Positions 1 to 24,728 of a DNA stretch of 64,000 nt are shown here, piece by piece. The DNA comes from Psammoneis japonica (Eukaryota): contig QPGO01000156.1 in NCBI GenBank assembly GCA_008632985.1, positions 62,001-126,000 on the forward strand, read 5' to 3'. Every line of letters begins with the position of its first letter. The stretch's first letter is position 1. Below the pieces are notes generated by a model. It did not search any database, was not told the DNA's origin, and saw only the letters and a list, made by a program, of their open reading frames with translations. The position numbers and the translations under genes are program-made.

Positions 1-3000
1 ATTTTGATGACATGGAACATTTTGCCAATGGTTTTGGAATGGAGTTGTTTGGTCCCAAGCTCAAAAGCACAATTTCAATGCTTGCATCCAAAAAGCAGTT
101 TTTGGAGACAACAAATTGGTCCCCCTCTCCAGAATTCCTTGTTCTTCCCTTCCTTTGTCACAAGCCAAAGTTGCGTTGCATTCCACATGTCACAGAAGTC
201 ATCCACACCAACAACATTGTCAGGAAAACTCTTGGATGCCCTGACATTTGGTCTTGCATCATGACCAGTGGTTGGTCCATGAAGAAATCCGACGTGCTGA
301 AAGGTGAATGTGTTCTTCAACATTAAAATTTGGAGGAAGCTCTCCATTTCTCCAAACTGCCCGGAGAGACAGCAAAAAAAGAGGATTGTCACGTGCAACT
401 TTGCTGCAAGATCAAAGCAATGGCAGAACTTGTTTGTGTGATCATCACCGGCGATGACCCAAATGATCCTGTCTCTGGCAAGCCTTGTTTCCATTTTTTT
501 ATGGTGCAAAAGTCTCCAAGAGATGATCAATGACCAAGCACATGACCTTCACGGTGCATGCGTTGTCATTGAAATTGTCATGTGTTGCATCGAGTGCAAA
601 TCAAAGGACATGGACTGTTGGTTCATGCAGATTTTTCACCGTGTCAATGCCCAAAAGGAGTGGCACATGTTCGTCAACAGCTTTCTTGTCACATGTGATT
701 CCAATGGTCCATGTTCCCAGGAGGATGAGATCAAGGGGTTCCTTAGAGACAAACTTGGTGACATTGAGAACTCTGTGACAATGGCAGGTGACTCCCTTGC
801 TCATTGGGAGGTGCACGAAGAAAAAATCAGTTCCATGTTGAATCATGAATTTGGGAAGGGCTGTCCTGTGAGGAGCAACCTGGCACATGACCCAGGCACA
901 GCAAGCAGCTCACAATGCTTCAGCTAAAATTCAGAAGCATTGGGAGGAGCATCACATGTTGAGTGTTAAGACAGAGGTTTGAAATTTTTGCAATGGCAGT
1001 TTTCCTCTGATGGCTGTTGCACAACACAATCACAAAATCTGCAAAGCAGTCACAACAACACATTGAGACAAGTGCAATGGCAAAAAGGAAGACAGCAAAG
1101 GACAGGATGATGGCAGAGGCATCACCAAACAGCCCCAGGCTAACAGCAGCATTGCAGCAGGTGGGTGCAGCAGGAGATCACCAATCTCTGAAGAGAGAGG
1201 TGGAAGAGGTGGCACGGAGAGAGCCATTCCCAAAAGAGCGAAGTTCTTTGTGAAGGCGGACATGGCAAGTGGTGGCAAGGTGTCAAGGCCAGTGCAGAAA
1301 AACACGGCCAATGGCAAGTTCAGCAAGCATGAATGGGCAGGGTCATGGGAGGACTGGGTGAAGAAATGTGTGCTCAATGCAGTCAATGCAAAAAAGAAAC
1401 ACCGTGTGTCAGACGATGATGAAGAGTGTGATGAGCGGCAAGTGCTGTGGGGTGCATTTCCAAAATGGGACTGGGTGTGGTGCTGCTGACAAGATTCTCA
1501 TTTTGCTGCAGTCATGATGACAGAAGAACAAGCCAAGGAAATCCGTGGGATGAAGAAATTGACAAAGAAAGCAAAAAGTGCAAAGAAGTGCAAAAAGCCC
1601 CCTGCGGACCATGAAGAACAGTTCCTGGCAACTTGGGAGGATGAGGCAGCAGACACCATTGTGTTTGAGAAGTGGACAAACAAGGAGGCACACACATGGC
1701 TCTACAACAACATTCTAAAATTCATGGAGAGCACTGCAATGTGGAGAAGGATGGTGGAGTCTGGCAGCACCAAGGCTGCAGATCCAGCTGTGGCAAGTGA
1801 TGAGGCACTGGCGCTGTTGATGTTGGAAAACTGCTGGAAGGTTTGGGAGCACAAGACCGTGCAGGAAAGAAAGGATGAAGGGAGCAAAGAGGAGGAGGGG
1901 GAAACAAAACCAGCGCCCTTGCACACAGACCTGATGCAACAGCATGACTCTTGGAATGACAAAGGAATGCAGCAATTCAATGCCCTGCTTGGGGAGGCAA
2001 AGGAGGACAGGGCAAGTGAGCCGGGTGTGCATTTCAACACATGGTGCAACAACAGAAAAAAAGGGAGAGCAAAGGTGAAGGAAAAAAGGGCAGAACCAAC
2101 AAAAAACCAGTGGAGATGGAGATGAGAACACAAACAACAACAGAACTTTATGGTGATGATGAGGAGGATGATGACAAATCAGACAAACCTGGTGGCAGGA
2201 AAGATGAGGAGGAAGACAAAGAGAGCAAAGAAAGCAGTGACGAAGGCAAACAAGGAACAACTCCAGTGCAGGCCAGTTTAAAATGCAATGTGGCTGACAC
2301 CACAGCATTGGCTTGGTGTTCATTGACAAAACATGTGAAAAAGCAAAAGCAACAGTTCAGCCCAAATTCATTGCACATGTCATGTCACATGTGAAAATCA
2401 ACATGTGATGTGAGACAAACAAGTGACATTGATTGTCAGCTTCCACAGTGAAGGAATGCATGCGCACAGGTTGCCAGCCACACAACTGACAAGGTTTGAA
2501 ACTGTGAAAACACCATCTGTAAAAGGAGTGAAAATCACTGTGAGAAAGGGGGTGTTTGTCACCACAATGCACGCTCTGATGGTTTCCTGCTGCTGCTGGT
2601 GTGATCATGAGATCTGACCCCCAACCCCCCCACCACACTGGTGGCACCACACACAAACATCAATGCCAAACAGCACCACATGGTGGCATGCCTCAAAAAC
2701 CTGCAATTTTTTGCTGGGGCTGGGCATGGCAATCAGTGGCAGGCTCTGGAATCTGGAATGTTGCGCTGCCAACAATCACACCCATGGCTGGCATCCAGAG
2801 TGACCAAGGGGGAGACATCACAAGGCTTTTGCCAATTCTGCATTTTCAACAGTGACTTGCCATTTGCAGAGCTGAAATGTGCAGCACTCAGTCTTTTGCA
2901 GCAAGGAGACACAAAGATGTGACATTGGATGGCACACAATTCTGTGTGTGAAGGCAGCAATTGGTCTTGTGGTGCTGCAGCTGCCACTTCTTGTGTTGCC

Positions 3001-4240
3001 ATTCTTGCAATGTGTTTTTGACACCAAACCAATGGCTGGCACAGAGAAAGTTTGGGCCAGAAAAGGACACCTGGGGCATGTGATGTGCTGTGAAAAAGGA
3101 CAACAGCACTCACAAATTGAAGAAGAGCAAGAAGAACAGCAGGCCAACAATGAAGTTGCTGGCTGGAGCAACACATTCATTGAATGAACTCTGGGACACT
3201 TGGCAATTTACAACAACCCACCCACCTGCATTGCTGATCCCATGGTCAAATCAAGAGCCAACAGCACAGATGGCATCACTGTCTGCATCCCCAACATCAA
3301 CACATGACCCTTGCTCCAACACCTGTTCTCCCAGTGCTGCTTGCTCTGTTGCACCTCCACGCCAACATGCCGTGGTGGTTGTGATCAGAGATGACAGTGC
3401 AGCACAGCTGGAGAGTCACATGTGACAGAAAATCAAGCCAGGACACAGTGGGAGCATGGTGTTAGAAGAGAGTTGGCAGAGGCATGGCATTTGGGAGAAA
3501 AATGGTGGGATTGGAGACATCAAGAGGGCAAGGAGTGCTGGGGCTTGGGGGGGGGAGGTGGAAAAGCAGATTGTCAATGGTTGGTGAAATGCCATGCATG
3601 GCACAGCAGAAGGAGTGGGTGAGAGAGATGAGGAGAGGGGATGGCTGTGTTGGGGATGGTGATGTTGTGGTGGCTGGCCCATGCTGTGTTTTGAGGGAGA
3701 CTGGCTGCTGGGAGGCTGAGGAGTTGGGCAGTGACAGTTGGGAGGAAAGGCAAAGGGGGCATCATTGTGAGACAGAGAGGAAGCATTGAGAGTGTCAAAT
3801 GATTGCATTTGAAGGGAGAGGCCCAATGGAAGAGATCTGGCAGGTTGTTGCAGGGGGTGGATGTTGAAGTGGCAACGGCAGCGAGGAGGTGAGTGTGTTG
3901 GCATGGCATCTGCGGAGGGAATGGTGGCACATTCGTGTTTGCGGGGAGCAAGAGGAGAGTGCTTTGAGTTTGCTTGTCAACGAGGGTGGTGAGGCAGTGG
4001 AGAGCTTGGTCAAAAGAGAGTCGAAGGTGGAGGTGGAGCGGGTGGCAGCCGAGCGTCCGTCAGCAATCTTGCTTGAAAGAATGGAGCGTGACGTCATCAA
4101 ATTCTGAAGCAAGCCAAGATCCGCGAAGTTCTTCGCACGCAAACTGCAAGGTGAAGTGCCAATGAAGTGGTTCGTGGTTCGCGGTTCGCGGGTGCGATGT
4201 TGGATGTTTCAGATGCGTTTCTGAAGGTCATTGTGTTGTT
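1..4240. mobile_element. Degenerate TE-derived block, TpA- and CpG-depleted; family unresolved
   Basis: About 13 TpA in ~4.2 kb by manual count; Cys/His-rich spurious ORFs in all frames; contains the accessory ORF at 1514-2125, related to the one at 19177-19515. Confidence 0.7.
1514..2125 (+). pseudogene. Relic of a DNA-transposon accessory ORF (SDEAxALLxLEN...W / WxxxGxxxFNxL...DR type)
   Basis: Motifs ASDEALALLMLENCWKVWE and SWNDKGMQQFNALLGEAKEDR align by eye with TVSLEAFALLVCLNCC and GWSKEWIKKHNELCKWVKKDQ at 19177-19515. Confidence 0.55.
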
Positions 4241-4259
4241 GTTTACATAATATTCCACC

Positions 4260-5111
4260 ATGGCGAAAGAAGTTGATTACACGAAGGTTGATGTTGAAGA
4301 TGATATCGAGCTTGCGGACGCTGCGATTCCGGAGGCGAAGCTGGTTGACAAGGATGGCATGTTGTTGCCCAAGTTGTCGCCCAAGTTCCAAGTCACTGCA
4401 CCCTGCGATCTCGAAGCGGGTTTTGAGTTTGCCGTGCCGTTTGATGACAAGCAATACCAAGTCACCGTTGTACGTGTACACTTTGTGTTCGTGAATAGTC
4501 GTCTTGCTATTTGCTCACTCAAGCTTTTTCTTGCAGCCGTCAGGAGGTGTGAGAGCTGGACAAACCTTCCAACCGGAGAACGTGCAAGAACTGAACAATA
4601 GAACTCGCCTTCCTCTAGCGGTGATTGGATGGCCGGGGTGTTTGATTGTTTCGACAGTCCCAACTGTTTTGGGGCATGTCTGTGTGGTATGTGTGTCCAG
4701 CCTCATTTGTTGGGCACCGTCATGAACCGCTTGCGTGGAGAGAGGGGATCGTCCGGTCTCTGTGCTCTCTTGTGCGCGGTTTTGGTGATTTCAAACCTAC
4801 TCATGAGGGTTGAAGACGATTCAATTGCGGCTTTGTTTGCACTTATCTTTCTGGGTGCCGTGTTTGTTCTTCACATGGCTTCGTGTCTGGCCCGTATGCA
4901 GTTGCGCCAACGCCTCGCGATTGAAGGAAGTGAAGTGGAAGATTGCTTTCTTTCGTGGTTTTGCAACTGCTGTGTGATTCTTCAGATGCATCGCCAAGTG
5001 GATCAAATGACGGCTGGACGGAACATGGTTGGAAAGGTCTCAAAGCGATTGGTTAAAAAGATTTCAGAGAAAGAAGAAGACCCCATTAAAGTTTCCACCA
5101 TTGATGTTTAA
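4260..5111 (+). CDS. PLAC8-family Cys-rich membrane protein
   Basis: W-x-x-GVFDCF...C-x-C...P and RMQLRQRLAIEGSEVEDC...FCNCCVILQMHRQ; GT-AG intron ~4470-4536; apparent frameshift near 4600. Confidence 0.8.
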
Positions 5112-5976
5112 GAAGGAATGATTGACTGACACGAGAAAATGCTTGTGGAATGAAAGGACACTCAGGCGTGACGAAGGTCCTTAGGCAGCGGCTCAGATAG
5201 AGTCGTGTATTTTATAGGATGAAGGAATGAAAGAAATGCAAGAGTAGTTGTCTTGCTTTCTCTAGCTACTTCTATTAGGTACCTACAGACTTACCGAGGC
5301 TTAAAGCGCGATGTGATAGGAACGGAGCATCCGAATCATGTAAAACACGGAGGCAAATTGGGAACGGAAGAACGTCGCTGACAACATAGTAGGAAGTCAA
5401 ACGATCTCGATTTGACGTCTTGCCGATGGATGATTCCTCTTGGCTTATTACGCAATTTCACAGAGTAGGCACTCATCAATTGAAGTCCCACGCCACTTGG
5501 CGTGCAAATAGGTGGCGACAGACACGATCGAGGGGAGATATGAGCAGATCATTCCCGTCGATAGGCTAGTCCCTTTTGCCATTTATTCACGAGAAAAGAC
5601 ATACCTACACTCACATTGACACCTTCGGCATGAGTGGCAATCTCCGCAAGCCTTTCTCGCATGAGCACAGCATGAAAGGGCGTCCCGTATCTTCAATGAA
5701 TATATGGCAAGACGCGTGAGGGTTGCCAACGCCGTATGGTCTTTCGCGAACCAACGGCTGAGGCATCCACATGACCTAATTTCCCTTCTCGTATACTCCC
5801 TCCAATACCTTTGGTGGTGATGGTGACAGACTAGGCCCTACTGTCAATCCCTTCGTATCGCACAAGGGTAAGAGATGTTGAGTCAAACTTCATATTACGC
5901 TAATAAGCTCCAAGGGAAGTCCTGGTACGGATGACTCGAAGCTCTCTAAAGTGAATGGTAACTGATACTCCCCTGA

Positions 5977-7265
5977 TCAGCTTGATTCGGCGTCAAGTTC
6001 CGCTTTTAGTTGCTCGTAAAGCTGGAGGACTTCTTCTCGATGATAGTCGTCCCACGGCGTTTCGTACAAGGCCGCACGATTCATGGTCTCTACGGCTCCC
6101 TTCAGATTTCCTTGAGCCTTTTGTGACAGAGCAAGATGCTTGTGGACCCAGGGAAAGTGCCGGTTTATCTGCAACCCAGCATCGGCATACGTAATCGACT
6201 TGCTGTACATACCTAGATGAAACATACACTTAGACAGGCCCATGATTACGGAGAGCTCTTGTCGAGGTGTCGAGCCCTCGAAAAACCCAGGCATTTCAAG
6301 AAGATTCAAGTAGAGTTGCGTGGCATCATCCCACTGCTCCATGTTCTCATACGCCCTTGCTTTCACGAGGAAAATGTTGATGTGCCGCATTGGACCTTCG
6401 CCCTTGAATCGAGATGGGGGAGCTTGCGATGTCATTTCCTCTTTCAGTTCGTCCAGCTCGCGTTCAGCTTCTAAATCGACCAAACCCATGTTTGTCGCTT
6501 GTTCTGCGCGCTCCAATAGCTCTGTAGCTCTGTTCAGTTTCGAGTGTCGCTCATTGTCAATCTCGATGACTTGATCAACAAGCTCAATGGATGATGAATA
6601 TTCTTTTAAATCCAAAAGGATTTCTGCCTTTGTAAACATAGCTTGAACGTGGGGCTGCGTCGTCCCGGCAAGAACCTTGTCTAGCTCTTGGAGAGCCTCT
6701 CGGCGAATGCCTTGAACCTCCTCGCTGTTGCGTTTCGTTTTCTTTCCAACTGAAGCGCCCTTCGGGCAAGCACCCCTGCTTTTTCAATAGCTGTCTTTTG
6801 TATGTCTTCAGCTCTAGACCGACACACGGGACAGGAAGTCGCGTCTGAACCCTGCTCGAACCCTGCTGCCACGCCTTGCTGCCATTCGTTGAGGCATGCA
6901 AAGCAAAACTGATGTCTACAGACTTTCAAAATAACTGGATTCTGAATTTCGGTAGTCAAGCAAATGGGACAATTGTCCGTGTTGGCGGGTGTCCTGTCTG
7001 CATATTCGTCCGGCTTCTCTACAACAAGCCCGCCCTCTTGCATCACGAGCGAACCAACACTACAATCCGGCTTGTGCTTACGCCAGTCCTTCTTCTGGCA
7101 GATCTGAGAGCAGTAGTAAACGCATTTGCACCGAGAGCATCGTTTCGACGGAGCCGCCTTGCTGCATTCTTTCAAGTCACATGTGATGCAATCCCGTGGA
7201 AGCTTGTCGATGCGCTCCTGGATTGGTAGCTCCATCTCGCTGGTTGCCTGTTCCTCCTCTGACAT
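5977..7265 (-). CDS. MYND zinc finger + RING finger + TPR-like protein
   Basis: CSRCKCVYYCSQICQKKDWRKHKPDC (MYND); CPIC...CRHQFCFAC...CPVC (RING); helical TPR-like C-terminus; two ORFs joined by a frameshift or intron near 6640-6720. Confidence 0.8.
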
Positions 7266-7473
7266 GACAATTGGTAGATTTATGGAAGTTGTCTGAACGA
7301 GGCCTCTCCTCCAATACTACTCTGCTACTATATACCGGTAGCAAACCACCAGAACGGATCTGGCAATCTGCAGCCTTCACACAACGCTCTGGTGTTCCTC
7401 ATTACTATGTTCGAAAATTGAATGAGAAGGATGAAGTCTCGCCAGACTTTTGATGTTTAGGCTGACGAGCTTC

Positions 7474-7657
7474 TGAATAAATGCTGATATACTGTCACGA
7501 ATATAGGCAGTCCATATGCCATTGGCGATTGGTCCACTGTCGCTTATTTAGTGGCCCCAGCAGCGTAACATCTCACAATTCCAGAACCTGTTGATGCTGT
7601 TCAACACTCTGTCTTGTCTTACACCCAATTCTTAGCTATCATGGTAGCATTTATTCA
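7474..7657 (+). repeat. 5' LTR
   Basis: TG...CA ends; 12-bp terminal inverted repeat TGAATAAATGCT/AGCATTTATTCA; ungapped match to 13985-14168 with 18 transitions. Confidence 0.95.
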
Positions 7658-7670
7658 CTTTATCAGAGCC
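7658..7670 (+). other. Primer-binding-site-like sequence (tRNA-iMet type)
   Basis: CTTTATCAGAGCC directly after the LTR resembles the canonical copia TGGTATCAGAGC. Confidence 0.6.
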
Positions 7671-8203
7671 AACACGCTGTGATGTTCATTGCCTGGAACG
7701 GGCATCGCGAACGGTGCGACGGTGTCGTTGCGGTCGATCGATTTTTGCGGCAAGCACCATGTTGGTCCCATGGTTGCTCGCGCAATCGCTGAGTCCTTTA
7801 CATGTGTCAACATTCATGGATGTGAACGACATGCTCTTGGAGACCAGAGCTGTGATCCGTCAGACATGACGTTGGCAGACGGAATGTTTGATCAGGTGGA
7901 TGGAATGTGTTGGCCAAGGCATGCAAACATTCGCGACAATGATGAAATGATGATTTATGTGTTCAGGTCTGTCATTTGATCACATGCATTTCATTAATCT
8001 AAAAACGTTGTCAAATTGTTCAGACACTGTGCATGTTGATGCATGTCTGTTGGACATTGTTGCTTGGGAGTGACACCGCCTGCTCGCGGGTTCGCCAAGC
8101 AGAAACCGCCAAATCGGCACGAGAACCACACATTTTTCTCACTTTCCTCCACTCACACAAGTGGATGCTCACGCGTCGAAACGCGAACAACTGCTGATGC
8201 ACC

Positions 8204-11200
8204 ATGGCCGCTGCCGCAGCCTTTGCCGCCTGTCTCACGCGTTGTGGACACAATGCGCAGACGCGCGCCCACACAGCCCGCCAAGGCTTTGCTGCCATCG
8301 AGGACCTGGAACAGGTCCCTTTGATGGAAATTGCCGATGTGACTGAGGGCATCATGAAGAGCGTTGACACCACCGCCAACCCCCAAGTCCGCTTTCCACA
8401 CCTGGCGAATCGCAAGCTCAAGGCACTGCGCGCATGGATTGACCACCGCAGAGCCCAGAACCAAGAGCCGACCGCTGCTCTCTTCGCTGGCGACGTCATT
8501 GGAACATGGGCGGCACGTCTTGTGGAACCAGAGCAATTCAAGTCCGCGGACTCAGACGACAAATCGGCTGCCAAAACGGCCGTGGAGCTCAAGAACCCAC
8601 ATGACTGGCCTGCCTTCCAAGAGCCACTGGAGACCGAACTGCGTCACCACCGCAGTGCCGTTGCCGGAGTGCCCCCCATCTAACCAGTTGGGGAACATGA
8701 AGAGGTCACCGCCAAGATGTTGGCTGCCACCTGCACCACCATTGACGAGGACCTCATTGCCACTGCCCGCCTTGCAGGAGCTCAGTGTGCGCAGGACAGG
8801 CAACGCCTGCATGATCTCTTGAAGAAGCCAGTGATGGGGGGGCCTGGATGGGCTTTTGTCAAACCTTCCAATCGCAGTCGCGATGGTCACACTGCTTTCT
8901 TTGCACTCAAGAGGCAGGCAGAAGGATCGGCTGCCGCCACTGCCCGAAAGAACCGTGCTTGTGCACAGATTGCTGCTGCGAAGTGCACCGGATGGGGTCG
9001 ATTTACCTTTGACCAGTGCATTCAGCATCATCAAAAGGCTCACAACGACTTGTCTGAGCTTGATGAACTGGTGGCCGAGACCAAGAAGGTCTCTGACTTT
9101 CTGAAGGGCATCTCCGATCCCAGGTTGGAAACTGGCAAGAGCGCAGTGGATGGAGACCCGACGAAGCTAGCAGATTTCGAGGCATGCCAGCAGTGCATGA
9201 AAACTCTGGTCGAAAATGCCAAGAACCACAATGCTGACACTCGCGGGATCGCATCCATCCAATGCCGCAACAACCAGCGCAACAACCCTGGTGGAAAGCA
9301 CCAACCTAAGAAGGACAAGCCAGGATCCGGGCAGGCCATTGTCCCATTGAAGAGTGGAGTGCTCTTGACGGTCCCGAATGAGAGCAAGTCCAAAAGCTCC
9401 GCGATGCCAAGAAAGCTGAAAAGAAATGCAAAGCTGCTGCTGCATCCTCGGAGGCTGAGTCGGTCAATGCGAAACTCGCGCTGTCAAGAAAGCAGCTGTT
9501 GCCGAGCCTGCTTCTCAACCTGCTGATGAACCGAAAGACTCCGAAGAGCCTGACAAACCTGCCGCCAATGCAGGTGCCCAGTTCGGATGCAGTGCACATG
9601 AGAAACCTCAGAAAGAGGAATGAACAGTTGCGCCAGCACCAAAAGGCATGGAACCGAATGTCGCCAAACCTGCTGGCACCATTTGTTTGTCTGGGCGATT
9701 CTCAAAGGATGCACACATCTCTTTGTCATCTGCTGGGAATTCAGATGATGAAGCCACCACTGATTTGGACTCGCACGCTAACACGTGTGCTGTTGGGTCC
9801 AATTTTGTGATGCACTCTGACATCGACAGAACTGTCGTGGTACACCCTCACTCCGAAGAGCACGCACCAATGGAAAACATTCCCATTTGCACGGCTGCCA
9901 CCGTGTGGGTTGATCCAACTGATGGACAACCACACCCACCACCAGTCCACGAGGCTGTGTTTTTCGGGGACAAGATGACCAACACCCTCCCATGCCCCAA
10001 CCAACTGCGAGCGAATGGGCTGATTGTCCATGATGCCCCTCGCCAGTTTGATCCAACTGGCACACACTCCATCTCTTTTCCTGACTCGAAGATCAGGGTG
10101 CCATTGCGAATGCGAGGTGTTGCTTCAGTCTTTGATTCACACAAGCGACAAAGGAGGATCTGGAGAACCTCCCCCGGCTGGAACTGGCATCACCCCTGAG
10201 ATGGGAGCCTTCTGCTGATGCCCTGGCGCAAAAGGAGGAAGTGCGTGCATGTGCCAGTGTGCGCCAAGGATCAGCAAAGTCGGACGGACGGTCGACGATG
10301 ATGAATGCGACCAGGTGTGTCACTTCCATTCATTCATGCCAAACATCCTGTCATGACGAGAATGTCATCATGGATGCCAATGACGACGATTCTTTGTATC
10401 ACCGCCTGGTTGCTCAGGCAAATGTCTCCCACAACGACACTGAGGGAGACGGGCCACATGACCGGCATGACCCAGATATCCACCCAGATTGTGCCAAGTG
10501 GAAACGGGTGTGTGCACTGTCGACCTCGAGTCGTGCATCGACCATCACGCCCGAGACACTCTCTAAAAGGTGGAACATTGGCCTGACGGCCGCTAAGAAC
10601 ACCCTCAGAGTGACGACCCAGGCAGGGGTCCGTAATGTCCACACACCATCCGAACGGAAAGTCCGGAAGAAAGCCCCTTGGCTTGAGTTCCCTGCTGTCA
10701 AGGGACGCTTCTACTCCGACCAGATGTTTTCGAAGGTCAAATCGACACATGGTGAGACAGGAGGAAGCGCACTTGCCAACGGAAGAGGGTGTGACAGGTT
10801 CCATCCTTGGAAGAGGAAACAGGACCACCCGGATGCCGTCATGTCATTCACACATGACGTTGGCGCACCGCAGGTCCTTGTGTTGGATGGCGCACCAGAA
10901 ATGGCGGAAGGCCAGACCAAAGAGATCTGCAAGGAATGCAGGACACATCAGGAGGTGTCCACCCCGCACAGCCCCTGGCAGAACCCAGCCGAGGCATCCA
11001 TTCGTGAGTTGAAGAAAAGAGTCCGTGTGACTCTATGCTGGACTGGCGCTCACAGGCGACTTTGGTCCTACAGCACCAAATGGACATGTGACATCCGACG
11101 CATGATTGCGACTAGCATGTCGGACATGGGAGGACGAGTCCCAGAAGAGGAGGTGACAGGTTCGACACCCGACATCTCTTCCCTCTCTCTCTTTGATTGG

Positions 11201-13833
11201 CATCAACCTGTTTGTTGCTGCGTGCCTGTGGCGGAGTTCCCACACAAAAAGAAGTGCACAGGCCGTTGGCTCGGAGTAGCTGACAACTGCACTGACGACA
11301 TGGCATTCATCATTTTGCCCGAATCGGACAAACCCATCATTCGGAAGGATGCATGGGCTGTGCCGGAGGATGACCTTAAAACTCCAGCAATCCAGATGGA
11401 TCTTGCATCGGTCGATCAAGCTTTGATCGAACGGCTTAGCATCCCGGAAAAGGATGCCAGTGCTGACTTCCCTGAACTCCCTGACGACTTCATGGACGAA
11501 TGGGACGATGCCGTTGAACCCGTGGAACCCAATGCTTCCAAACCGGAAGCTGATGAGTGTGCCCCGGAAGGGCCAGATGAGCATCTCACAGCTCAAGTCA
11601 TGTTGCCACGAGGAGGCGAGCTGACTCATGCTAGGGTCATTGCACGCAAGCGAGGTGGCGACGGGGTTCCTGTTGGTGCTAGGAACGACAACCCTGTCCT
11701 AGACTCAAGGACATATGACGTGGAATTCCCTGATGGATCCACTGATTCCCACACTGCTGACGTCATTGCAGAGAACCTGTTCGCTCAGATCGACTCTGAA
11801 GGGAATGCCTGCCAGATCATGAAGGAGACAGTCGATCACCGACGTGATGCCCGTGCCGCAACGGCCGATGACGGGTGCATGACGACTGAGACTGGCAGGC
11901 GTGCTCCTAGGAGGACGACTGCAGGCTGGGACCTGCAAGTCAAATGGAAGGATGGGACTGCATCCTGGGTTCCTCTCAAGGATTTGAAGGAGTCCAATCC
12001 AGTCGAGGTTGCTGAGTGCGCTGCAGCGAACAAAGCAGCCAGTGAACCAGCCTTCAACTGGTGGGTCCGAGACGTCTTGCGTCGCAGATCAAGGATCCTG
12101 AAGAAAGTCAAGTCACGTCACTGGAAACGCACGCATGAGTTCGGAATTGAACTCCCAAAATCTGTCAAGGAAGCCATGGAAATAGATGACAGAATGGGGA
12201 CCGACTTCTGGTTCAAGGCCATTGAGAAGGAAATGCGCAACGTCATGCCTGCGCTCGAATTCCGCGATGACGACACTGTGCCGGTCGGGCACAAACATGT
12301 TGATTGTCACATGATTTTTGACATCAAGAGCACCCTCCAACGTAAAGCGAGGTTCGTGGCCGGAGGCCATCAAACCGATCCACCCAAGGAATCGACCCAT
12401 TCCAGCGTGGTGTCGCATGACAGCGTTGGGACAGCATTCACCACACAGCAGCTCTGAATGACCTGGAGGTCCTGAGCGCTGATGTTCAGAATGCCTGCTT
12501 GAATGCACACACTGAGGAAAAGTGTTGCACCACTGCTGGCCTGGAACTTGGGAAGCAGAGCAAGGGAAGGCTGGTGATCATTGTCCGTGCCTTGCATGGT
12601 CTCAAGTCTTCAGGTGCAAGATTTAGGGAACATGTGGCAGCTGCTCTGCGGGATGCTGGGTTCGAGTCTTGCAAGGCTGACCCGGATGTCTGGATGCAGG
12701 CTGCGGTTAAGCCGGATGGCTTCAAGTGCTGGGAACATGTGCTTGTCTATGTGGACGACTTGTTGTGCGTCTCCCATGATCCTCAGAAGGTCATGGATTG
12801 CATGAGCTCTGGGTGCACGCTCAAGGACGGAAGTGTCTGCGAACTGGAAGAGTGCTCAGGCGCCCAGATCAGAAAGTGCCAGCTGTCTGACTCGGACAGC
12901 AAGACACGCTGGGCTGTGTCCTCTGACCTTTGTGTCAAAAGGGCATCAGCTGACGTTGAATTAGAGCTTAAGAAAACTGATGGGCGTCTTCCGACGAAGG
13001 CGTCGACGCCCTTGAGCTTGGGATGCAGGCCTGAACTGGACGGTTCACCTGAGTTGAACGCCAAAACGGCTGACTGCCATCAAGGCCTCATTGGTGTGCT
13101 GTGGTGGGCAGTTGAACTGGGGTGAGTGGACATTTTTGTCGCTGTCTTGCTCATGTCCTCCTGCTTGGCAGCACCACGAGTTGGACACCTGGACGAGGTG
13201 CTCCATGTCTTTGCATGCTTGAAGGCTCGCTCTGTGTCTGCGCCAGTGTTCGACGACACTGAGCCCGTCTTTGACGAGAGTCACTTTGCCAAGTGTGATT
13301 GGGAAGAATGTCACCCTGGCGCGGCTGAACCAATGCCACCGAACATGCCAGAGGCACGCGGGAATGGCGTGGCTGCTGCTTGCTTTGTCGATGCTGATCA
13401 TGCCGGATGCCGTGTGACGCGCAGGTCCCACACTGGGATCCTGACATTTGTCCAACGAGCGCCCATCTTGCATTGCTCTAAGCAGCAGAATGCCGTAGAG
13501 TCCTCTGCTTTTGGGTCGGAGTTCGTGGCTATGAAGACTGCAGTGGAGCAAATCAAAGCCTTGCGTTGCAAGCTTCGGATGCTCGGAATCCCCATGGATG
13601 GGGCCACTGACGTTTTCTGTGACAATGAAGCTGTCTTCAAGAACTCAACTAAACCAGAGTCCACTTTGAAGAAGAAGCATAATGCAATTGCCTGTCACAG
13701 GACTCGTGAGGCACAAGCCGCTGGAACAGTGTGCATTGCTTGGGAAGATGGATGCACGAATCTAGCGGACGTGCTAACTGAGTTGTTGCCTGGACCGAAG
13801 CTCCGGGAAATCACAAGTCACATCCTGTGGTGA
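8204..13833 (+). pseudogene. Copia gag-pol polyprotein, disrupted
   Basis: Protease DLDSHANTCAVG; integrase PHSPWQNPAE; RT KARFVAGGH, ALHGLKSSGA, YVDDLL; RNase H DADHAG...RRSHTG, FCDN; stops or frameshifts at ~8681, ~10145, ~12445 and 13123 (CGA>TGA). Confidence 0.92.
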
Positions 13834-13971
13834 GTCCCAAAAGGGGACAAACCGAACAGGTTTGCCACGCAGGTGCGGCTTTTCCCACCCCCAAAACAAA
13901 AGCACCACCCTGGAACAGGGCAGCATCAGGTTGCACTTGTCTGTCGATCTGGCCCGAGCGGAGCCAGTGTC

Positions 13972-13984
13972 AGTTCAAGGGGAC
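13972..13984 (+). other. Polypurine tract
   Basis: AGTTCAAGGGGAC immediately before the 3' LTR. Confidence 0.65.
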
Positions 13985-14168
13985 TGAACAAATGCTGACA
14001 TGCTGTCACGAATGTAGGCAGTTCATGTGCTGTTGGCGATTGGTCCACTGTCGCTTGTTCAGTGGCCCCAGCAGCACAACATCTCACAATTCTAGAACCT
14101 GTTGATGCTGTTCAACACTCTGTCTTGTCTTGCACCCAATTCTCAGCTGTCATGGCAGCATTTGTTCA
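13985..14168 (+). repeat. 3' LTR
   Basis: Same length as the 5' LTR; TGAACAAATGCT...AGCATTTGTTCA. Confidence 0.95.
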
Positions 14169-15724
14169 CTTCAGAAATCAGCGGTTTCCTGCCTGTGTGC
14201 CTGCCTGCCATGCCGTGCCGTGCATCTGCCATGCCATGCAACCACAGGCTCAGTTGCAATGCAACAGCAGTTTGCAGAGCCATGACCTGCCACGGTGTGT
14301 GGCAGTTGCCATCTGCCATCTTTTCATGGCTGACATGAGAGGGAGACCTGAGCATCATCAATGCGCAGCAGCAGTGCTGTGCTTGATTTTCCTCATTCAA
14401 GGAGGCTGAAGGAGAGACTGAGCTCCTGAGACGTCACTGGCGCACACAACATTTCCTGGCTGGGAAAATGAGTGTCCTGCAACCCACCACACCTGGTGGC
14501 TGCCCAAGTTGTGGTCATTGCTTCAGTGGATGACAGGCACTGGGGCAGAAACACATGGCAGAAAAATGGCCAAAAAGCCACCTTGGTGGTTGTGTTCTGC
14601 ATTTTCTGAGTTGGACCCTGCCAAGCTGAGAGCACAGCATAAAAAAATGAGTTGTCACACACATGTGGACAAACTTTTTTTCACATTTAGCAGTGTTCTG
14701 TGGCATGTGTTTTGTTCAAGTTGGGTGGCAAGAAAGGAGAATGAGCTGAAAAAAGGTTGATGATCTTCCAGAGATGAAGTTTGCAAACATGGCCAAAGGG
14801 CAACAGAGCCGCCATCCTCTCTTTGGCACTCTGACCAACCTGGTGGAGACATTGTTGACTTCATGCCATCAGACAACTGCACAGAGGTTGAGTTGTGAAG
14901 AGCCAGCTTCTTCGTTGACATTGTGGTGGGTCTGAATGTGTGGCCCACACAGCCCGCATTTGCCAATGTCATGGCAACTCTTGGAGGACTGCTTGCTTGC
15001 AGGCAAGGAGTTGAGGCTTTGCCACACTGTTTGAGAGGGATTTTTTGACAAGTTTGCTGCTGACAAAGCCAAGTGCTGTGGTGGGTGTGTCAATTTCCAC
15101 GTGAAACTGATGGAAGGGCTTGATGTGCAGCATCCAAATGCTGTGAAAGTCACCAGTGGCAAGGCCACCTCTGCCAACTTGCACCAGTCAAGTGGCCAGC
15201 TCAAAACTCAGCCAATCATCACATCAATGTTTTGAAATGGGAGCTGCACAATCAAAAAATTGTTTCCCTGTCATGTTTGCAAAATGTTGGTTGCACAAGG
15301 CTGCAGCAGCAGAGCATCAAAACAACTGCAAAAACTGGGACATGTTTCTGCATGTCTGGGTGGACATCCTGGCAACATTGTGAACATGATGGCACTCAAG
15401 AATGTTCATGCCAGGAAAGAGATCCTGACTGCCAGAGCCTTCCCATGTTTTGCCACCATGGTGGTTGTGTCATGACAGAAAAAAATGTCTTTGTCCCCAC
15501 TGGAGATTCTTTCTCTTTACCTGAAAAACAACAATTTTTCTCATTCACCACATGGCAGCCCCGTGCAATGTTGGCAGCCTTCAGAGGCTCTGCGGCTGCA
15601 CATCCAGCACTTGGTGCATTCCTCACAGCATCATGACAGCCCCACAGAGTGCTTGATGTGCAGCATTGGCCTCTCACAAGGCTCTCAAATCTGCCAGCTG
15701 GTCTGTGCTGCACCGCCACATGTC

Positions 15725-18700
15725 CATCTGGGACACCAACAATCTGGGTGTTGCACCTGCCATCAAGAATTTTTGAATTGCAGCCAGGCAACTTCTCTGT
15801 TTAATCCAAGATTGTGCTGATTTGTCAAATCTACATTTGTGAAATGTTCAAGAACAAACATCTTCATTCCCAAAGTCAATGAATTTCTCTCCACTGCATG
15901 GAAAAAACTGCGGTGCAGTTTGTGCTCATGTTGAGTCCTGAATGAAGTGCAACCCACTTTCCCCAATTCAAAACTCTGCAGTCATGTGTGAGGTTAGATT
16001 CGTCTTTGCTTCAATTTTTTGGCTCCCTGTCCATGCCATTCTTTGTTTTTGTGCAATGCCCCCCATGTTGCTCTTCTTCATTTGCCCCCAGCTTGCAACC
16101 CTGCTTTTCACCATGTGATTGCTGTGCCACGTGATTGATGTTTGCCTTCAATGCATTCCTTCCATCACATTGTCATCTTGACATTTCTCCAACATGCTTC
16201 ATTGATGCAGTCTGATGGTCTTGTTTGTCCCTGGTGCAAATGTTCTGGGTTCAGTTCCAAGCATGATCTTAGTCAGAGCACATTGCTGCCCCAACTGTCT
16301 CCTTTTCATTGGTCTGACCAAGTCTTTCAGTTGTCTGTTGTGGACATTGTGGTTTTGACTCAGAAAACCAGGTGCAGTGTCTCCTTTCCCATCACTGCAC
16401 CACTTCCACTGTTCTCCCTTTGCCAAGAACATGGCAGCATTCAAGAACTGAAACATCCTCCCTGTCTGGTCAGACATTGTTGGTTTCTTTGCTTGCTTCC
16501 TTGGGATGCTGACTCTGTTGCCTCTCTTGGGTCCAATGCCAATGGACCAAAATGTCCCCATTGCCAAGTTCCCTTTTTCAACATTGCCCCGCACATCCAG
16601 AATTGTGCACCCTGCTGCGAGAAGAAGGAAGCATCCCTTTGATGCTCTGCTGCTGCTTCAAATGCTGTCAATTCATTTTTCCCTCCAGATGATGACACAT
16701 TTGGTGACAATGATGATGACTCCATGTTTGGTTTTGCTGATGACAAACCCCAGCCCCTCCCTGCCTAAAGTCCATTTGAACCCAGATCCACCTCCTCCTG
16801 CACACTCTGACAATGCTTCTCCTGTCAGCTCCCCCGTGTGCACCCACCCTGTCAAATGCTCTGGTTGCTTGCATGCCGCTGCCAATGCAGCCACTGTGAT
16901 TGATCACCGATTTGTCTCATTTGCCAATGATGGTGTGTCTGCCCTCAGAGAGGACAGTTCTGTGGATGTTTCCAAGACCATTGCAGCTGATTCTCGATGG
17001 CACTTTGGGCCCTCCCTTGATGTCATGTCCAGCAGAAGACACAGCGCTGCTCCTCTCCTGTCTGTGTTGACTCAGCTGCAGTTTCCTCATTTGATCCCAA
17101 AACTTCACTGGGGCTGGCATGCAACCTGCCCCTGATGAGAACTTTGATGTCCCTCCAGTCCACTCACCCAGCACTGTGCTCATAATTTGGCTGCTGCCTC
17201 TCTGTCTTTGGTCAGGTGTTGCAATTGACTTGATCAACAAAGTTGTGAGAATGGCCCATGAAGAGCATGCAGAGAAAAGATTGGATTTGCCACAAAACAT
17301 CACATCAAGTGCAATCACAATGGTTTCCCACAGACACTTGTTTGTCAACATCTCCTCCAGGCAATTCTGTGTTGTGTTGTTGATGAATGGCATCCATCCA
17401 TTGCAGCTGTTAAAAAAAATCTTTGTGTCAACTTCATGACAGCACAAACTGCGCACTGCATCATTTTTGTCAAGAAAGGACCTGTTGGTCAAAGTGGGGT
17501 GCCTTTCTGCTGTGTTGGGAAAAATGCCAGTGCACCACACACCACCCAGCTGGTGCCAAGGACAATGCAGCTCACAGCACTGTGGGCCTGACAGGTGGGA
17601 AAAAGCAGACAACAAGCAATCACCAAACCAGCACAACCACCACCAGCATCAATGAAACTGAAAATGCTGTTGGACCAACTGCCCAACATGCAGGGATGGG
17701 TGGCCCAAAACCTTGGCACCAAAGTCAAAATTCACTGTCTCTCCATGTGATTCAGCACCGCCACCAGCAACACAACCAAATTGATGCTCGATCTCAGGCA
17801 TGTGATGATGGCAGCAGAGGGAACATGCACTCCAGTGATTGTGGCAGTTCAATGCAACCAGCACATCCACTCAACACCCATGTCAATTTCAACAACATGA
17901 TGGGAAACAGATTGTGTGTGAGTTCATGGTGAAGCGGGCTGGTGAATTGTGTGTGAACACACATCATTTGGATTTGTGATGATTCCATTTGGGCAAGAAC
18001 AGTGAGACAGCAGTTGGAGATGCAAGCATTGCATTTTATGGGATGAATGAGATTGTGGTGCATTGGCAGCAGAGGAGGGCATCAGAAATGAGGAGGAAAC
18101 AACCAACTTGGTTGTCAACAAAATTTTACAAGAAAAGTTGCAGAATTTGCTTAAATCAATGCAGAGCACACACTGGCACATGTGAATGGCTTGCATTGGA
18201 GCACAATTTCAAAACAGTGAAAGGTTTTGAAAATTTCAAATGTCAAGTTAGAAATGTGCTCACAAATCTGACACAGAGACCTGTTTGAATGAATCTGGGA
18301 AAAGTGAGCAATTGCAAAACAGAGAAAATCACTTGCAAAGTGCACTCATTTCATGACTTCTCATGTCACAAACTAGACGGAACACAGAAAACAGTGCAAC
18401 ACAAGAGCTGCCTGTTGGAACAGGAAAAAAGATGGAGAAGACAGTTGCCACAGGAGTGACAATGCAAGATGGTGGGAGCATGATAATGTCATGTGGCACA
18501 AGTTGGGTTGAAGAGGGCAGGACAAAGAATGACAGTTGCACCAAACAAGTTGCAGCCGGCCATTTTGGCATGCTTTGCAGTTGCCATGAGTCCTGTGGCA
18601 GTGGGATTGCTCAATGCACAAACAAACGAGTGCAGGGAATTAAGCCAATTCCAGTTTGCAGGCAGGGACTCAAGTTCTGTTGTGACACCTGCGGAGGGAT

Positions 18701-20131
18701 GTCATGCAATGGATCAAGCTCCAGCAGTTGAGAGAAATTGGCAGGGTCCATGTTGATGAAGGTGGTCAATGAAAGTGTGCAGCCACATCACAAGTTCACA
18801 AACTTTGACAGAGAACTTGCAGTGGGAGGAGAGCACATGAAAATGGTTCTGCAGGAGTCAGGAGCATGGCATCTGCACCAGATGCATTCTCCGATGCATG
18901 CAAAGATGCAATCAGAAAAAACCTCAACCACAAAAGGAACAATGCACAGGACAACACAAGGAGGAGGATGACAGGTGAGCAACACAGTGCAGGCATTCAG
19001 CAGTTGTAGATGGGATTGTCTGACGGCCAAGTGTGAACTCCATTGTTTTCATCAATGCAGTTGCTGCTTTAGAGGGGTTCTTGCTGGATGAGTGTGAAGA
19101 CTTGAACAAGGGCAGGGGTGACAAAGACATGTGCACGTGGTTCTTGGAAATGGTGGTGCCAACTGTGGTGGGCTGAGTGCAGTTTGGCAGCAGAAGCACA
19201 ACCAATTTGCTGCAAGAGTGGCTCACTGTGTCATTGGAGGCCTTTGCTCTGCTGGTGTGCTTAAACTGCTGTGACAAGGTGGCTGACATGGCAGAAAAAT
19301 TGGAGAAGGATGACAACATTGCAAGGCACAGAAAGCTGATGGTGGAAGATGCTGCATCTGCAAAGTGCACGGTGATGGCAAAGGGGGAATCAGCTGAGAG
19401 GAACCAAGGATGGAGCAAGGAGTGGATCAAGAAGCACAATGAACTGTGCAAGTGGGTGAAGAAAGACCAAGAGGAGAATGAAGGATTTGGTGCATGGTTC
19501 AAGGAATGGAGGTGAGAGAAGGTGAACTTGTCCAAGGATGCAGAAAAGAAACACAAGAGAGAGAGAGAGAGGAGAAAAGGCAGGAGAGAGAGGATGGATG
19601 GGCCACGCCAATTGGAGAGGACCTGCCCTTGCAGCCAGTGGCTGCTGGCAATGACACAGAAGCAATTGCGTCCATGTGGCAAAAAACCAAACTGGTGCGT
19701 GAATGTAAATTGCAGCAAACAACAAAATCCAGAACACAGCAAAAACAAAGAGGCAAACTGCAAGGCAATTGTTGGTCAAGAAAAAATGGCAGTTGCAACA
19801 TTTGCTTTTAAAACAAGAACAGTGCAAAGAGACAAAATGCACAAGGATGTTGCAGGCAAAGATGGTGGATCACATGTGGCAAGAGTTGTGATGAAGGAAT
19901 GAGGAACAGCAAATGTCAGAAAGGGTTGAGATTAAAATTGTGGGCAGGAACATTCACACTTCAAAGTGGGGCACAAATTCAAATCAAGAAGCTCACAAAC
20001 TCAATTGGTTCTGAATGCACTGACATTGCAAGGAAGACTTGGCTCTCAAGCTCACAACATTCTGGGATTGCAGTCGAGAAACACCCAGATTTTGACAGGT
20101 GGTCAGACCCAGATTGTTGGTGTCCCAGATG
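15725..20131 (+). mobile_element. Degenerate TIR DNA transposon (~4.4 kb), possibly CMC/EnSpm-Plavaka-like
   Basis: 25-bp perfect inverted repeats CATCTGGGACACCAACAATCTGGGT at 15725-15749 and 20107-20131; TC on both outer sides (possible 2-bp TSD); CPWC zinc-finger-like remnant near 16230; accessory ORF at 19177-19515. Superfamily is inferred. Confidence 0.65.
19177..19515 (+). pseudogene. Transposon accessory ORF remnant, related to 1514-2125
   Basis: TVSLEAFALLVCLN...KCT...GWSKEWIKKHNELCKWVKKD. Confidence 0.55.
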
Positions 20132-20199
20132 TCCATCAAGAAGACTTCAACAAAGTGAACCACAGATGCTCTCAAATTCAAAAGGCATGTTGATGCAAG

Positions 20200-23100: not shown

Positions 23101-24450
23101 ATGTGCCAGCCAGCTGGCTGGACAAATGGCAGGTGGTGGGTGTCCAGACCATGGCAGCACTGGACAAGACCACTCACATGGATGGAAGGCTGGGCGTGGT
23201 TGGGATGACAGCTTTGTGGCACATGCAATGGGGAGTGGGTGGAGCAGTGCAAAACAAATGCATGGAGCCATTTCTCAGAACTCCAGAAAGCAGCAAGGCA
23301 GAAGCCTGAAGTTTCTGTGTCCATTTGACACTTGACACTCAACAAAAGTTTGGGTTTCAGGGACACAAGCTCACAACAATGACAGTGGATGACGCTTCTT
23401 GGAGGCAAGAAGCTTTTTTCAGAACCTTAAGAAGCCACATCTCTTGCTGCAGCCGCAAGACATGAAAGACATCTGGGTGCTTAATTTCATGTGCAGAGTG
23501 CAGGCCAAAAACAACTCAATGGCTTGTGCCTCAGTGTCAAAAGTTGAAAGAGCATCAGAGAAAGTGGAATTTGTTTTTCTGGACCAGACATCTCTGCCAG
23601 GACAGGAGGCATGGGTTTGACCATGACAGCTGCCCTCTTGATGGCTGACACAGCAGGACTGAAAGTGACAGAAGTGTCCACAGGGGCAGCAACCAAAGAC
23701 TCTTTAACAGGAACACACACCACATGACACAGAAAAGACACTCATCAGGGTTTGAAGCCCTTTGCTGTGGGAGGCCAAAGGGAACACATGAAACATGATC
23801 AGCAAAGTGGTGCAGAGAGGCTGGCACCAAAGCCCCAGAATTAGACTTGGAAGGTTGTTTGCCTTGTCAATGTGCTTGATTTGCACCATTTCCAGACTGT
23901 GCCAGCCCCTTTTGCTGTTGGTGTGAGCATCACAAACATTGACAAAATGCCCAGCAGGCTTGGAAGGTTCAGCTTGTGTGTCAGCAGCTTGGGTGGTCTT
24001 CCTCTGGTCTGCTTTGCACACTGTTTCTTGTGTGCAGGAGAAGTGAGGAGCTTCGTGCAGCCAGCTGCACCCCAACCATGAAGATGCTGCTTGGTGATGC
24101 CAAAGCTCTTGTGAGAGCAAAACCCAGCTGAGGCAGTTTTGATGCCAAGGTGGGGCAATTCTCATTGCCAATGAGCTTGCCATGGGTTTCTTTTGGCAAC
24201 AAGGCCAACGGCACCACCAGGACTGAGATCTGAGCAGTCAGAACACTTGGGGATGACCTCAGCTGGGTTGGATGTCACTTCCCTTCCAACTGCTTGACAA
24301 GGTCCAACTTGAGATAAAAGTCTGGTGGCTCTTAAAGAAGAGCTCAGAGGATGCTTTGGACACCTTGGGTGAAATGGCAGAGCCTGTCTCAGATGGCAGC
24401 ACATGATCCATCTGTGCACAATGTTGGCTGGATGCAGAGCTTTGGTTGTG
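20200..24450 (-). mobile_element. Second, heavily decayed Ty1/copia relic; boundaries approximate
   Basis: Minus-strand remnants in copia order: protease-like NTGA...GDFTGP...LGGMTNGLAVAGLG (~22400-22560), GAG-pre-integrase KLVLEWH..FGH (~22120-22170), integrase FCGTNAHHQNGAAE...VSNMARVML (~21570-21650). Confidence 0.7.
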
Positions 24451-24728
24451 AGCTCTGTGCAGTTCAGGGTCGCTGTCACAACTCCACAAAACGGACACAA
24501 AACAGATTCATTTTAGTTGCCCAAAATGAGATCATGAGATGCGATTTGCTGGGGTCTTTTTAAAATAAAATGGCTCAATGGACTGCCGAAAACATGCACT
24601 GCATTGGCCTTTTACGCATTTGTGTGCTCCATCCACACAAAACTGCACACCACAACTCTTGTCAGCAATCCACAACCAAACCACCATGTGTTGTCACAAC
24701 CCAACAACGAGTTTTCAGCCACCATGCA

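Follow-up and report, generated by a model that had tools for sequence, protein, structure and literature searches.

Domain-bound loss of TpA from transposon-derived DNA in Psammoneis japonica and the flanking bases of the sites that remain

Introduction

Hypermutation of foreign DNA specifically at TpA dinucleotides has previously been described in one preprint and one chlorarachniophyte, Bigelowiella natans. In that mutation-accumulation study by Mettrop et al., two integrated viral regions gained 231 de novo mutations, of which 230 were A>G or T>C, all of them at TpA and at ~1000 times the background rate, TpA-poor coding sequences were enriched in reverse transcriptase (RT) and DDE domains, and an ADAT2 homologue was proposed as the agent (bioRxiv 10.64898/2026.01.13.699255). 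The words flank, context, trinucleotide and tetranucleotide have 0 occurrences in its main text (bioRxiv 10.64898/2026.01.13.699255). Here we analyze a 64,000-nucleotide stretch of Psammoneis japonica DNA (contig QPGO01000156.1, positions 62,001 to 126,000; hereafter the window, with positions counted from its first letter), which carries a Copia-type retrotransposon with long terminal repeats (LTRs) and two compositionally older tracts, and in which ~95% of the TpA in transposon-derived DNA has been turned to CpA or TpG after integration. The window records the same, very recently described kind of process as in B. natans, in a different lineage; it shows where such a process leads in the long term, at saturation, and adds a ranking of the bases that flank TpA.

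Several better-known systems also introduce transitions into repeats or act by deamination. In ascomycete fungi, repeat-induced point mutation (RIP) targets cytosines of duplicated sequence before meiosis; APOBEC3 enzymes turn C to U on minus-strand cDNA, before integration and with strand bias; ADAR-type enzymes prefer a 3' G; and natural TadA-type enzymes act on tRNA loops, at a U-A-C-G site. Judged by titles and the openings of abstracts, searches of one literature collection for TpA hypermutation turned up RIP papers and the B. natans preprint only, with no report from a diatom.

Results and discussion

TpA gives way to CpA and TpG within bounded domains

Dinucleotide counts were set against those expected from base composition (observed/expected, o/e) and profiled in 1-kb windows across the 64,000 nucleotides. 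Positions 1-4240 hold 13 TpA where 270.6 are expected (o/e 0.05), so that a reading of this stretch from the letters alone (the sequence-only reading), which had put the figures at about 13 against about 250 by chance, agrees well with the count of 13 against 271. CpG is also scarce there (56 vs 243 expected, o/e 0.23), and CpA (467, o/e 1.85) and TpG (469, o/e 1.80) are in excess. Among dinucleotides ending in A only TpA is depleted, with AA at o/e 1.14, GA at 0.97 and CA likewise not depleted, which fits an obligatory 5' T.

The deficit of TpA with gain of CpA and TpG recurs in the 1-kb windows from 8001 to 25000, and by these profiles the DNA falls into three types. The first, at 1 to ~4100 and 14172 to ~25300, has lost both TpA (o/e 0.02-0.12) and CpG (o/e 0.03-0.29), and we call these stretches the old tracts; the second, at 7662-14171, coincides with the Copia element downstream of its 5' LTR and has lost TpA (o/e 0.02-0.21) while largely keeping CpG (o/e 0.62-0.79); the third, the remainder of the window, is ordinary (TpA o/e ~0.57, CpG ~1). 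Counts of CA and TG are near equal in the three depleted stretches (459/453, 1286/1273 and 575/638), as are the Cys and His counts in the Pol protein described below, so both strands are affected alike.

The depleted domains have edges at 4240/4244, 7661/7799 and ~25300. Inside the first of these, 3900-4240 contains 0 TpA, against 18.3 by composition and ~10 if the o/e of host DNA is applied (Poisson P = 4e-5), along with normal CpG (22 vs 21.3 expected), and the first TpA beyond it stands at 4244; a spliced contig of the public run X2, with a GT..AG joint 4469>4537, begins at 4151, within this fringe. The fringe looks like the TpA process leaking into unique flanking DNA, independently of CpG decay. 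The CpG deficit is pronounced in the old tracts (0.03-0.29), weak in Copia (0.62-0.79) and absent at 3900-4240; CpG decay is a separate, slower process and does not explain the loss of TpA.

The LTR pair gives direction and timing

The Copia element occupies 7473-14171 on the plus strand and is bounded by a pair of 188-bp LTRs, 90% identical, at 7473-7660 and 13984-14171. Both LTRs of one element are identical at integration, and the differences between them therefore arose in the chromosome. Of 187 ungapped columns 18 differ, 16 of them at inferred ancestral TpA. Thirteen of the 14 TpA in the 5' LTR read CpA (6) or TpG (7) in the 3' LTR, all of them transitions, and at one further site the 3' LTR keeps TpA where the 5' LTR has CpA. 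At two adjacent columns one LTR has CA and the other TG, which indicates that both LTRs were hit at one ancestral TpA. The only other differences are two columns, one C/T and one CpG>CpA. From these counts, the per-site rate of TpA loss would exceed that of other substitution roughly 300-fold. The order of rates is TpA loss, far faster than CpG decay, and CpG decay faster than background substitution, a ranking that we offer to enzymologists.

The two repeats have fared very differently, with 14 of 16 inferred ancestral TpA lost from the 3' LTR and 2 of 16 from the 5' LTR (Fisher p = 5e-5). The 5' LTR adjoins expressed host genes and the 3' LTR adjoins an old tract; the last TpA on the host side stands at 7661, at the junction of the 5' LTR with a putative primer-binding site directly after it, and the next one is at 7799. 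That near-identical LTRs 6 kb apart were treated differently argues for targeting by position, that is by chromatin domain, and not by sequence. It is possible that the 5' LTR is a gene-conversion copy from an intact element and not a spared original. As an internal control, the LTR pair thus marks the process as post-integration, strand-symmetric and limited by position rather than sequence. TpA-only loss, transitions on both strands, a bounded chromosomal domain and a selfish target (Copia), the marks of hypermutation of the B. natans type, were all found in the window. As a side observation, the 5' LTR contains an AATAAA that has become AACAAA in its 3' counterpart.

The Copia Pol protein has lost its tyrosines

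The LTR pair, the homologues of its Pol and an RVT_2 match at 12421-13122 that scores below threshold (E = 4.6e-5, 23.6 bits, Pfam cut-off 31.6) place the element with Ty1/Copia; no target-site duplication was found. Homologues of the Pol frame at 10136-12454 number 73, with identities of 28-57% and coverage reaching 100%; most carry PF07727 and one is from Pseudo-nitzschia, and they match no other place in the window. Tyr makes up 0.5% of the frame, compared with 2.2-4.9% in the 73 homologues, none of which is Tyr-poor, and Cys (2.7% vs mostly ~1-2%) and His (3.8% vs mostly 2-3%) are raised. Of 36 conserved-Tyr columns (at least 50% Tyr among at least 15 homologues) the element keeps Tyr in only 5; 15 have become Cys and 13 His, and the others are Phe (2) and Trp (1). 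Among 174 mismatches in 770 conserved Pol columns, the largest share is explained by one-base changes of A>G (37.8) or T>C (28.0).

No copy above 65% identity came up in protein searches at near and at shorter lengths, and a metagenome scan for Pol yielded just one distant locus (31% identity). A contig of run X2 follows the first 110 bases of the element past the 5' LTR, to 7772, and then continues in TpA-rich sequence unlike the window; it may represent an expressed, unmutated copy of the family.

The flanks of the remaining TpA

The sequence-only reading had also proposed that about 12 of the 13 TpA left in 1-4240 are in a TTA or TAA context. The count is 12 of 13, the exception being a CTAC at 1703, and the residual spectrum differs from the background within the window, where TTA/TAA make up 612 of 1525 TpA at 25301-64000 (0.40; binomial p = 1.4e-4) and would make up 0.46 if sites were evenly re-created from local CpA and TpG (p = 7e-4). 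The same bias, reported earlier for 24.5-25.3 kb, holds there too (9 TpA vs 55 expected, 8 of 9 TTA/TAA) and across 14001-25000 (34/41, p = 2e-8). Pooling 1-4240 with 14001-25000 gives 46/54, TTAA alone contributing 17/54. In the third depleted stretch, 8001-14000, the TTA/TAA bias is absent (18/37, p = 0.19).

A classification of the flanks as purine (R) or pyrimidine (Y) accommodates both kinds of DNA (Table 1). Y-TA-R is in excess and R-TA-Y is scarce in the old tracts and in Copia alike, and both sets are described by an order of loss in which R-TA-Y comes first and Y-TA-R last. A flank-dependent target is the best reading, and a flank fingerprint exists, as the sequence-only reading held, with a form other than the V-TA-B target (no T before, no A after) that it had proposed: by the Akaike information criterion (AIC) that rule improves on no rule in the old, CpG-depleted tracts and gains nothing in Copia, and the pattern is instead one in which Y-TA-R survives, R-TA-Y is preferred and A-tracts are the most refractory.

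Table 1 Flank classes of residual TpA (old tracts, 53 sites; Copia, 7700-14171, 43 sites; background, 1632 sites) and AIC of flank models
Class or model	Old tracts	Copia	Background
Y-TA-R	33/53 (p = 1e-13)	24/43 (p = 6e-9)	271/1632 (16.6%)
R-TA-Y	1/53	4/43	484/1632 (29.7%)
AIC, no rule	322	256.8	
AIC, TTA or TAA protected	268	256.4	
AIC, graded T/A	244		
AIC, graded Y/R	260	224.9	
AIC, four-level half-site	234	227	

Fitted half-site weights, taken relative to A, put T (11) above C (3.3) and G (1.2) in the old tracts; in Copia the order is C (4.5), T (3.5), G (1.0), and CTA/TAG half-sites are the most enriched there (37/86 vs 22% in background). In the old tracts TA is followed by AAA in 21 of 106 half-sites, with the consensus TAAAAT; the residual CpG of the same tracts shows no such skew (RCGR 40, RCGY 33, YCGR 17, YCGY 32). 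T and A flanks slow the TpA process and do not block it: of the LTR sites in a TTA context (TTAT, TTAC and TTAG) 5 of 5 were converted, so TTA is not immune, and the two TpA retained by the 3' LTR are ATAG and CTAG. Since only two LTR columns outside TpA differ, few of the 43 Copia TpA can be new, and the flank effect there reflects survival. The 5' LTR retains 14 TpA, 3 of them Y-TA-R, and Tyr codons (N-TA-Y) would lower the ancestral share of Y-TA-R in Copia further. Y-TA-R seems to be protected beyond what independent half-sites predict, a comparison that depends on assumed ancestral counts.

Which of the two bases is changed bears on a deaminase of the TadA type, which had been put forward for comparison along with the derived adenine base editors. 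The obligatory 5' T agrees with it, and for the 3' side there is a weak trend: a preference for A followed by a pyrimidine predicts Y-TA-Y to Y-TG-Y and R-TA-R to R-CA-R, and products favoring it outnumber the others 19 to 9 (p = 0.04; LTR 8:1, Tyr codons after a pyrimidine 9 Cys:7 His, Ile ATA-R 2:1).

A proposed mechanism and its alternatives

Jointly, these observations are best explained, in our judgment probably correctly, by a domain-bound process that acts on TpA after integration, at a rate set by the flanks and with a DNA adenine deaminase as agent. The transposon-derived stretches at 1 to ~4240 and ~7662 to ~25300 have been mutated in the chromosome after integration, by an A:T to G:C change specifically at TpA, on either strand, yielding CpA or TpG; its rate lies about two orders of magnitude above that of other substitutions, with a sharp stop at the domain edges, and in the oldest parts ordinary CpG decay adds to CpA and TpG as well. 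R-TA-Y would go first and Y-TA-R (TTAA, CTAG and TTAG/CTAA) ~3-4 times more slowly, and TAAAA, in which TpA heads an A-tract, would go slowest of all. With TAAAA and Y-TA-R as the slowest contexts, long exposure would leave nearly only TTA and TAA, the pattern that the sequence-only reading saw. The least certain element is the agent: a DNA adenine deaminase with an absolute need for a 5' T may convert A to hypoxanthine, read as G, and may be recruited to a silent chromatin domain and not to a sequence, as proposed for B. natans. The ranking R-TA-Y, mixed, Y-TA-R, TAAAA offers a test for candidate deaminases, methyltransferase-like enzymes and repair polymerases.

On a broader scale, and tentatively, since we would sooner doubt it than assert it, a chromatin-domain TpA mutator, a kind of "reverse RIP" that reads duplex R-T-A-Y and avoids A-tracts, may be common to diatom-like stramenopiles and rhizarians and perhaps old in the SAR group (stramenopiles, alveolates and rhizarians). 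If so, transposons in these lineages would be driven to near-zero TpA, which would remove Tyr codons, TAA and TAG stops, and TATA-like and AATAAA-like signals, and targeting would follow chromatin position, not sequence or small RNA homology.

Several observations weigh against the joint explanation. The whole data set is one window with 96 residual TpA sites (53 in the old tracts and 43 in Copia), and the ancestral TpA contexts of the Copia interior had to be assumed to be LTR-like (3/14 Y-TA-R) or background-like (17%). Tyr codons survived alike whichever base preceded them (3/20 after a pyrimidine, 2/16 after a purine), and the protecting pyrimidine differs, being T in the old tracts and C in Copia, so that a single rate rule covers the difference between old and young DNA only by way of exposure time and starting composition. 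The product-choice trend described above is weak. A composition-based measure of it, the ratio of RCAR+YTGY to RTGR+YCAY, which depends on the ancestral composition, stands at 1.23 in the host background; it rises to 1.39 for the old tracts (p = 0.04) and, in the opposite direction, falls to 1.07 for Copia (p = 0.14). Among the ORFs (open reading frames) of the window that were scanned there is no deaminase domain. Amphioxus ADAT2, one eukaryotic ADAT2 shown to edit adenine in DNA, is incompatible with the pattern, as its reported preference on DNA is for TCG and GAA in hairpin loops, and not for TA (PMC10354150).

The alternative that survives best, which we nonetheless judge unlikely, is that the residual TpA of the old tracts were re-created from CpA or TpG by flank-biased C>T change (at dipyrimidines, Y-C-A to Y-T-A and T-G-R to T-A-R) or from TCA/TGA, in which case the spectrum would be a fingerprint of the creating process and not of the TpA mutator. 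A CpG o/e of 0.03-0.1 would make these tracts very old, with many CpA and TpG since mutated to TpA, and at 20-24 kb the residual TpA o/e (0.02-0.06) is about equal to the residual CpG o/e, as at mutation equilibrium. Dipyrimidine re-creation, calculated from local YCAN and NTGR counts, predicts ~52% Y-TA-R, 48% mixed and 0% R-TA-Y, and this fits the observed classes of 62%, 36% and 2% nearly as well, a point against the joint explanation. Evenly spread re-creation from local CpA and TpG is rejected (44% TTA/TAA expected vs 46/54, p = 7e-10), and the Y-TA-R excess is present in young Copia as well, where re-creation could supply only a few of the 43 sites. The re-creation model further leaves the extended TAAAA(T) context unexplained, the low total of TpA needs continued removal of new TpA even if sites are re-created, and the residual CpG of the old tracts is without a comparable flank skew. 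Probably, many of the residual TpA in the old tracts are re-created sites that persist, the spectrum then being creation bias divided by removal rate.

A chemistry other than adenine deamination, such as a thymine-directed change (a modified T read as C) or error-prone, polymerase-eta-like repair synthesis at T-A steps in the same domains, seems to us distinctly improbable. In its favor, A>G on one strand cannot be separated from T>C on the other by sequence alone, the protection of Y-TA-R beyond independent half-sites hints at reading of a duplex tetranucleotide, and neither the ORFs scanned nor the GAA preference of a DNA-editing ADAT2 (PMC10354150) points to a deaminase. Against it, AA is undepleted (o/e 1.14) and every one of the 13 LTR conversions is a transition. 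Polymerase eta, which had been suggested for comparison, mutates WA motifs and would leave a different pattern, with hits at ApA and many transversions; this finds no match in an AA o/e of 1.14 and 0 transversions among 13. No enzyme is known to turn T into a C-like base in DNA. TadA-derived editors, in turn, can favor Y-A-C contexts (PMC13109818).

We give little credence to the literal form of the rule in the sequence-only reading, that protection comes solely from a preceding T or a following A, with V-TA-B preferred and C and G flanks irrelevant. The old-tract counts (12/13, 34/41 and 8/9) speak for it, as does the better fit there of a graded T/A than of a Y/R scheme (AIC 244 vs 260). In Copia it brings no gain (AIC 256.4 vs 256.8), and CTA/TAG are the most enriched half-sites; in the LTRs, all five TTA sites were converted and the TpA kept by the 3' LTR were ATAG and CTAG.

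Editing of RNA or cDNA during retrotransposition, ADAR-like or APOBEC-like, with copies inserted already hypermutated, is very hard to sustain. The best-defined target is a retrotransposon, and RNA adenosine deaminases typically prefer a 5' U/T, as the B. natans preprint states (bioRxiv 10.64898/2026.01.13.699255). Such editing would appear in both LTRs and with strand bias, and instead the two LTRs, which share one template at integration, disagree in 16 TpA-related columns, both strands are equally hit (Cys 15 vs His 13, CA about equal to TG), and TpA loss extends into non-element DNA at 3900-4240. A base-calling or assembly artefact at modified bases, suggested by the restriction of the pattern to domains likely to carry DNA modifications, is scarcely credible when unique-depth contigs of run X1, which may be the assembly's own data, agree with the window, amino-acid replacements obey the code (Tyr to Cys or His) and the 5' and 3' LTRs differ within the same assembly.

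Repeat status, allelic differences and organization of the window

Three public runs, X1, X2 and X3, were compared with the window, the library type of X1 not being on record. X2 and X3 give no cover in the depleted parts, which does not count as evidence, and 8958 contigs of X1 fall on 20 kb of the window, so the Copia and old-tract families have many copies. Unique-depth X1 contigs match the window with 2 differences in 958 bases (2473-3430) and 4 in 1691 (14144-15832), X1 possibly being the assembly's own sample. Summed X1 word depth, which is not copy number, reaches 800-3580 over 1-2668 and only 52-66 in the unique flank, which shows that sequence related to the left tract is repeated in the run; positions 2669-4002 are at unique depth. 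The transposon derivation of the old tracts is inferred only from this depth and from composition. Pfam gave nothing above cut-off for 2 ORFs of at least 200 amino acids in 1-4100 and 19 ORFs in 14172-25300, Rfam had no match in the whole window, and self-comparison of the window revealed no second copy of the old tracts.

Of 2826 places where the window and X1 differ, 40 were listed, and 28 of these were examined, with omission of 12 at 5353-6058 in a host gene. Among the differences listed, the window has TG and a unique-depth X1 contig CA at 3572-3573 and 3732-3733, and TA and TG alternate between the two at 3182 and 3464; these cases account for 6 of the 11 differences listed between 3182 and 3981. 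They point to hits that two alleles or strains took independently and perhaps recently, and the TpA process may have been active recently.

Table 2 Coordinates of features in the 64,000-nucleotide window
Feature	Position	Strand	Characteristics
Old hypermutated tract	1..4100	none	TpA o/e 0.04-0.07, CpG o/e 0.09-0.26, CpA/TpG ~1.9x over
Left-tract fringe, TpA-free with normal CpG	3900..4240	none	Overlaps start of adjoining expressed gene
Host gene stretch, internal control	4241..7472	none	TpA o/e mostly 0.3-1.0, CpG ~1
TPR-repeat ORF in host stretch	5977-6639	minus	TPR_2 E = 1.7e-10
5' LTR of Copia-type element	7473..7660	plus	188 bp, 90% identical to 13984-14171
Copia internal region	7661..13983	plus	TpA o/e 0.02-0.21, CpG o/e 0.62-0.79
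Pol frame (protease-integrase, RT start)	10136..12454	plus	73 homologues; Tyr nearly gone
RT and downstream Pol frames, after frame change	12421..13830	plus	RVT_2 sub-threshold; high-scoring segments of homologues cover 12454-13830
3' LTR, strongly affected by TpA process	13984..14171	plus	14/16 inferred ancestral TpA lost
Second old hypermutated tract	14172..25300	none	TpA o/e 0.02-0.12, CpG o/e 0.03-0.29
Right fringe of second tract	24500-25300	none	Low TpA, half-normal CpG; 9 TpA

The loss of TAA and TAG leaves long overlapping ORFs on both strands, for example 1514-2125 (plus) and 1715-2329 (minus), and the 6.3-kb Copia element has 46 ORFs of at least 70 amino acids. DNA free of TpA has only TGA stops, and its spurious long ORFs on both strands are a trap for gene callers; TpA loss also hides transposon domains from profile searches.

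The ordinary DNA of the window encodes a MUS81-type nuclease, an HA-domain protein, PMSR, a mitochondrial carrier, Spo11/TopoVIA, RF-1 and four ricin-B-lectin paralogues. For the MUS81-like protein, relatives with a name come from the diatoms Fistulifera and Mayamaea (33-37% identity), with best other matches of up to 54%; its ORF (43599-45629, minus) contains a ~176-bp tandem duplication, 93% identical, at 43891-44243. The four ricin-B-lectin domain paralogues lie in tandem at 54406-60428, with DNA identity of 67-73%. A dispersed repeat of ~510 bp and ~73% identity (25691-26198 vs 27186-27685) lies in DNA of normal TpA content just right of the hypermutated domain. The product of ORF 39576-40721 resembles Ham1/ITPase with a score right at the Pfam cut-off (22.6 vs 22.5 bits); this class removes (d)ITP, and its nearness to an inosine-type signature is probably coincidence.

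Comparison with known systems

The process resembles RIP in being a DNA-level genome defence that makes transitions in repeats at a single dinucleotide and spills over into unique DNA alongside. RIP, however, turns CpA into TpA and so enriches TpA, and here the reverse is seen, TpA being destroyed and CpA and TpG enriched; a 20-fold TpA deficit with a 1.8-1.9-fold excess of CpA and TpG is the opposite direction, and fungal RIP was rejected. Unlike in RIP, moreover, depletion extends to a stretch of unique depth, and the near-identical LTRs of one element were treated differently. Methylation-driven CpG decay likewise removes a self-complementary dinucleotide from silenced DNA in favor of CpA and TpG, and does so in the same old tracts, but it hits the other base pair and is much slower here (Copia CpG 0.62-0.79 vs TpA 0.02-0.21). 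With APOBEC3 the process shares the restriction of retroelements by deamination hypermutation, and differs in being A:T>G:C, strand-symmetric and post-integration. The 3' G preference of ADAR-type enzymes is the opposite of the pattern here. TadA and ADAT2 come nearer, as A-to-I chemistry would give the observed transitions and the obligatory 5' T and weak 3'-pyrimidine trend are compatible with them; a variant TadA-derived editor acts in Y-A-C contexts (PMC13109818).

The closest counterpart is the B. natans process. In both, TpA>CpA and TpA>TpG transitions alone, on both strands, are confined to sharply bounded chromosomal domains of foreign DNA. The mutations in B. natans were measured de novo, and here the process is read from sequence; the rate is ~1000-fold above background there and, by our estimate from the LTR pair, perhaps ~300-fold here. 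The substrates and hosts also differ, being integrated giant-virus and virophage DNA in a chlorarachniophyte as against an LTR retrotransposon and old repeats in a diatom-like host. Finally, the viral region of B. natans stands at a TpA o/e of 0.45, whereas the domains described here have reached 0.02-0.1, near saturation, with CpG decay in the old tracts.

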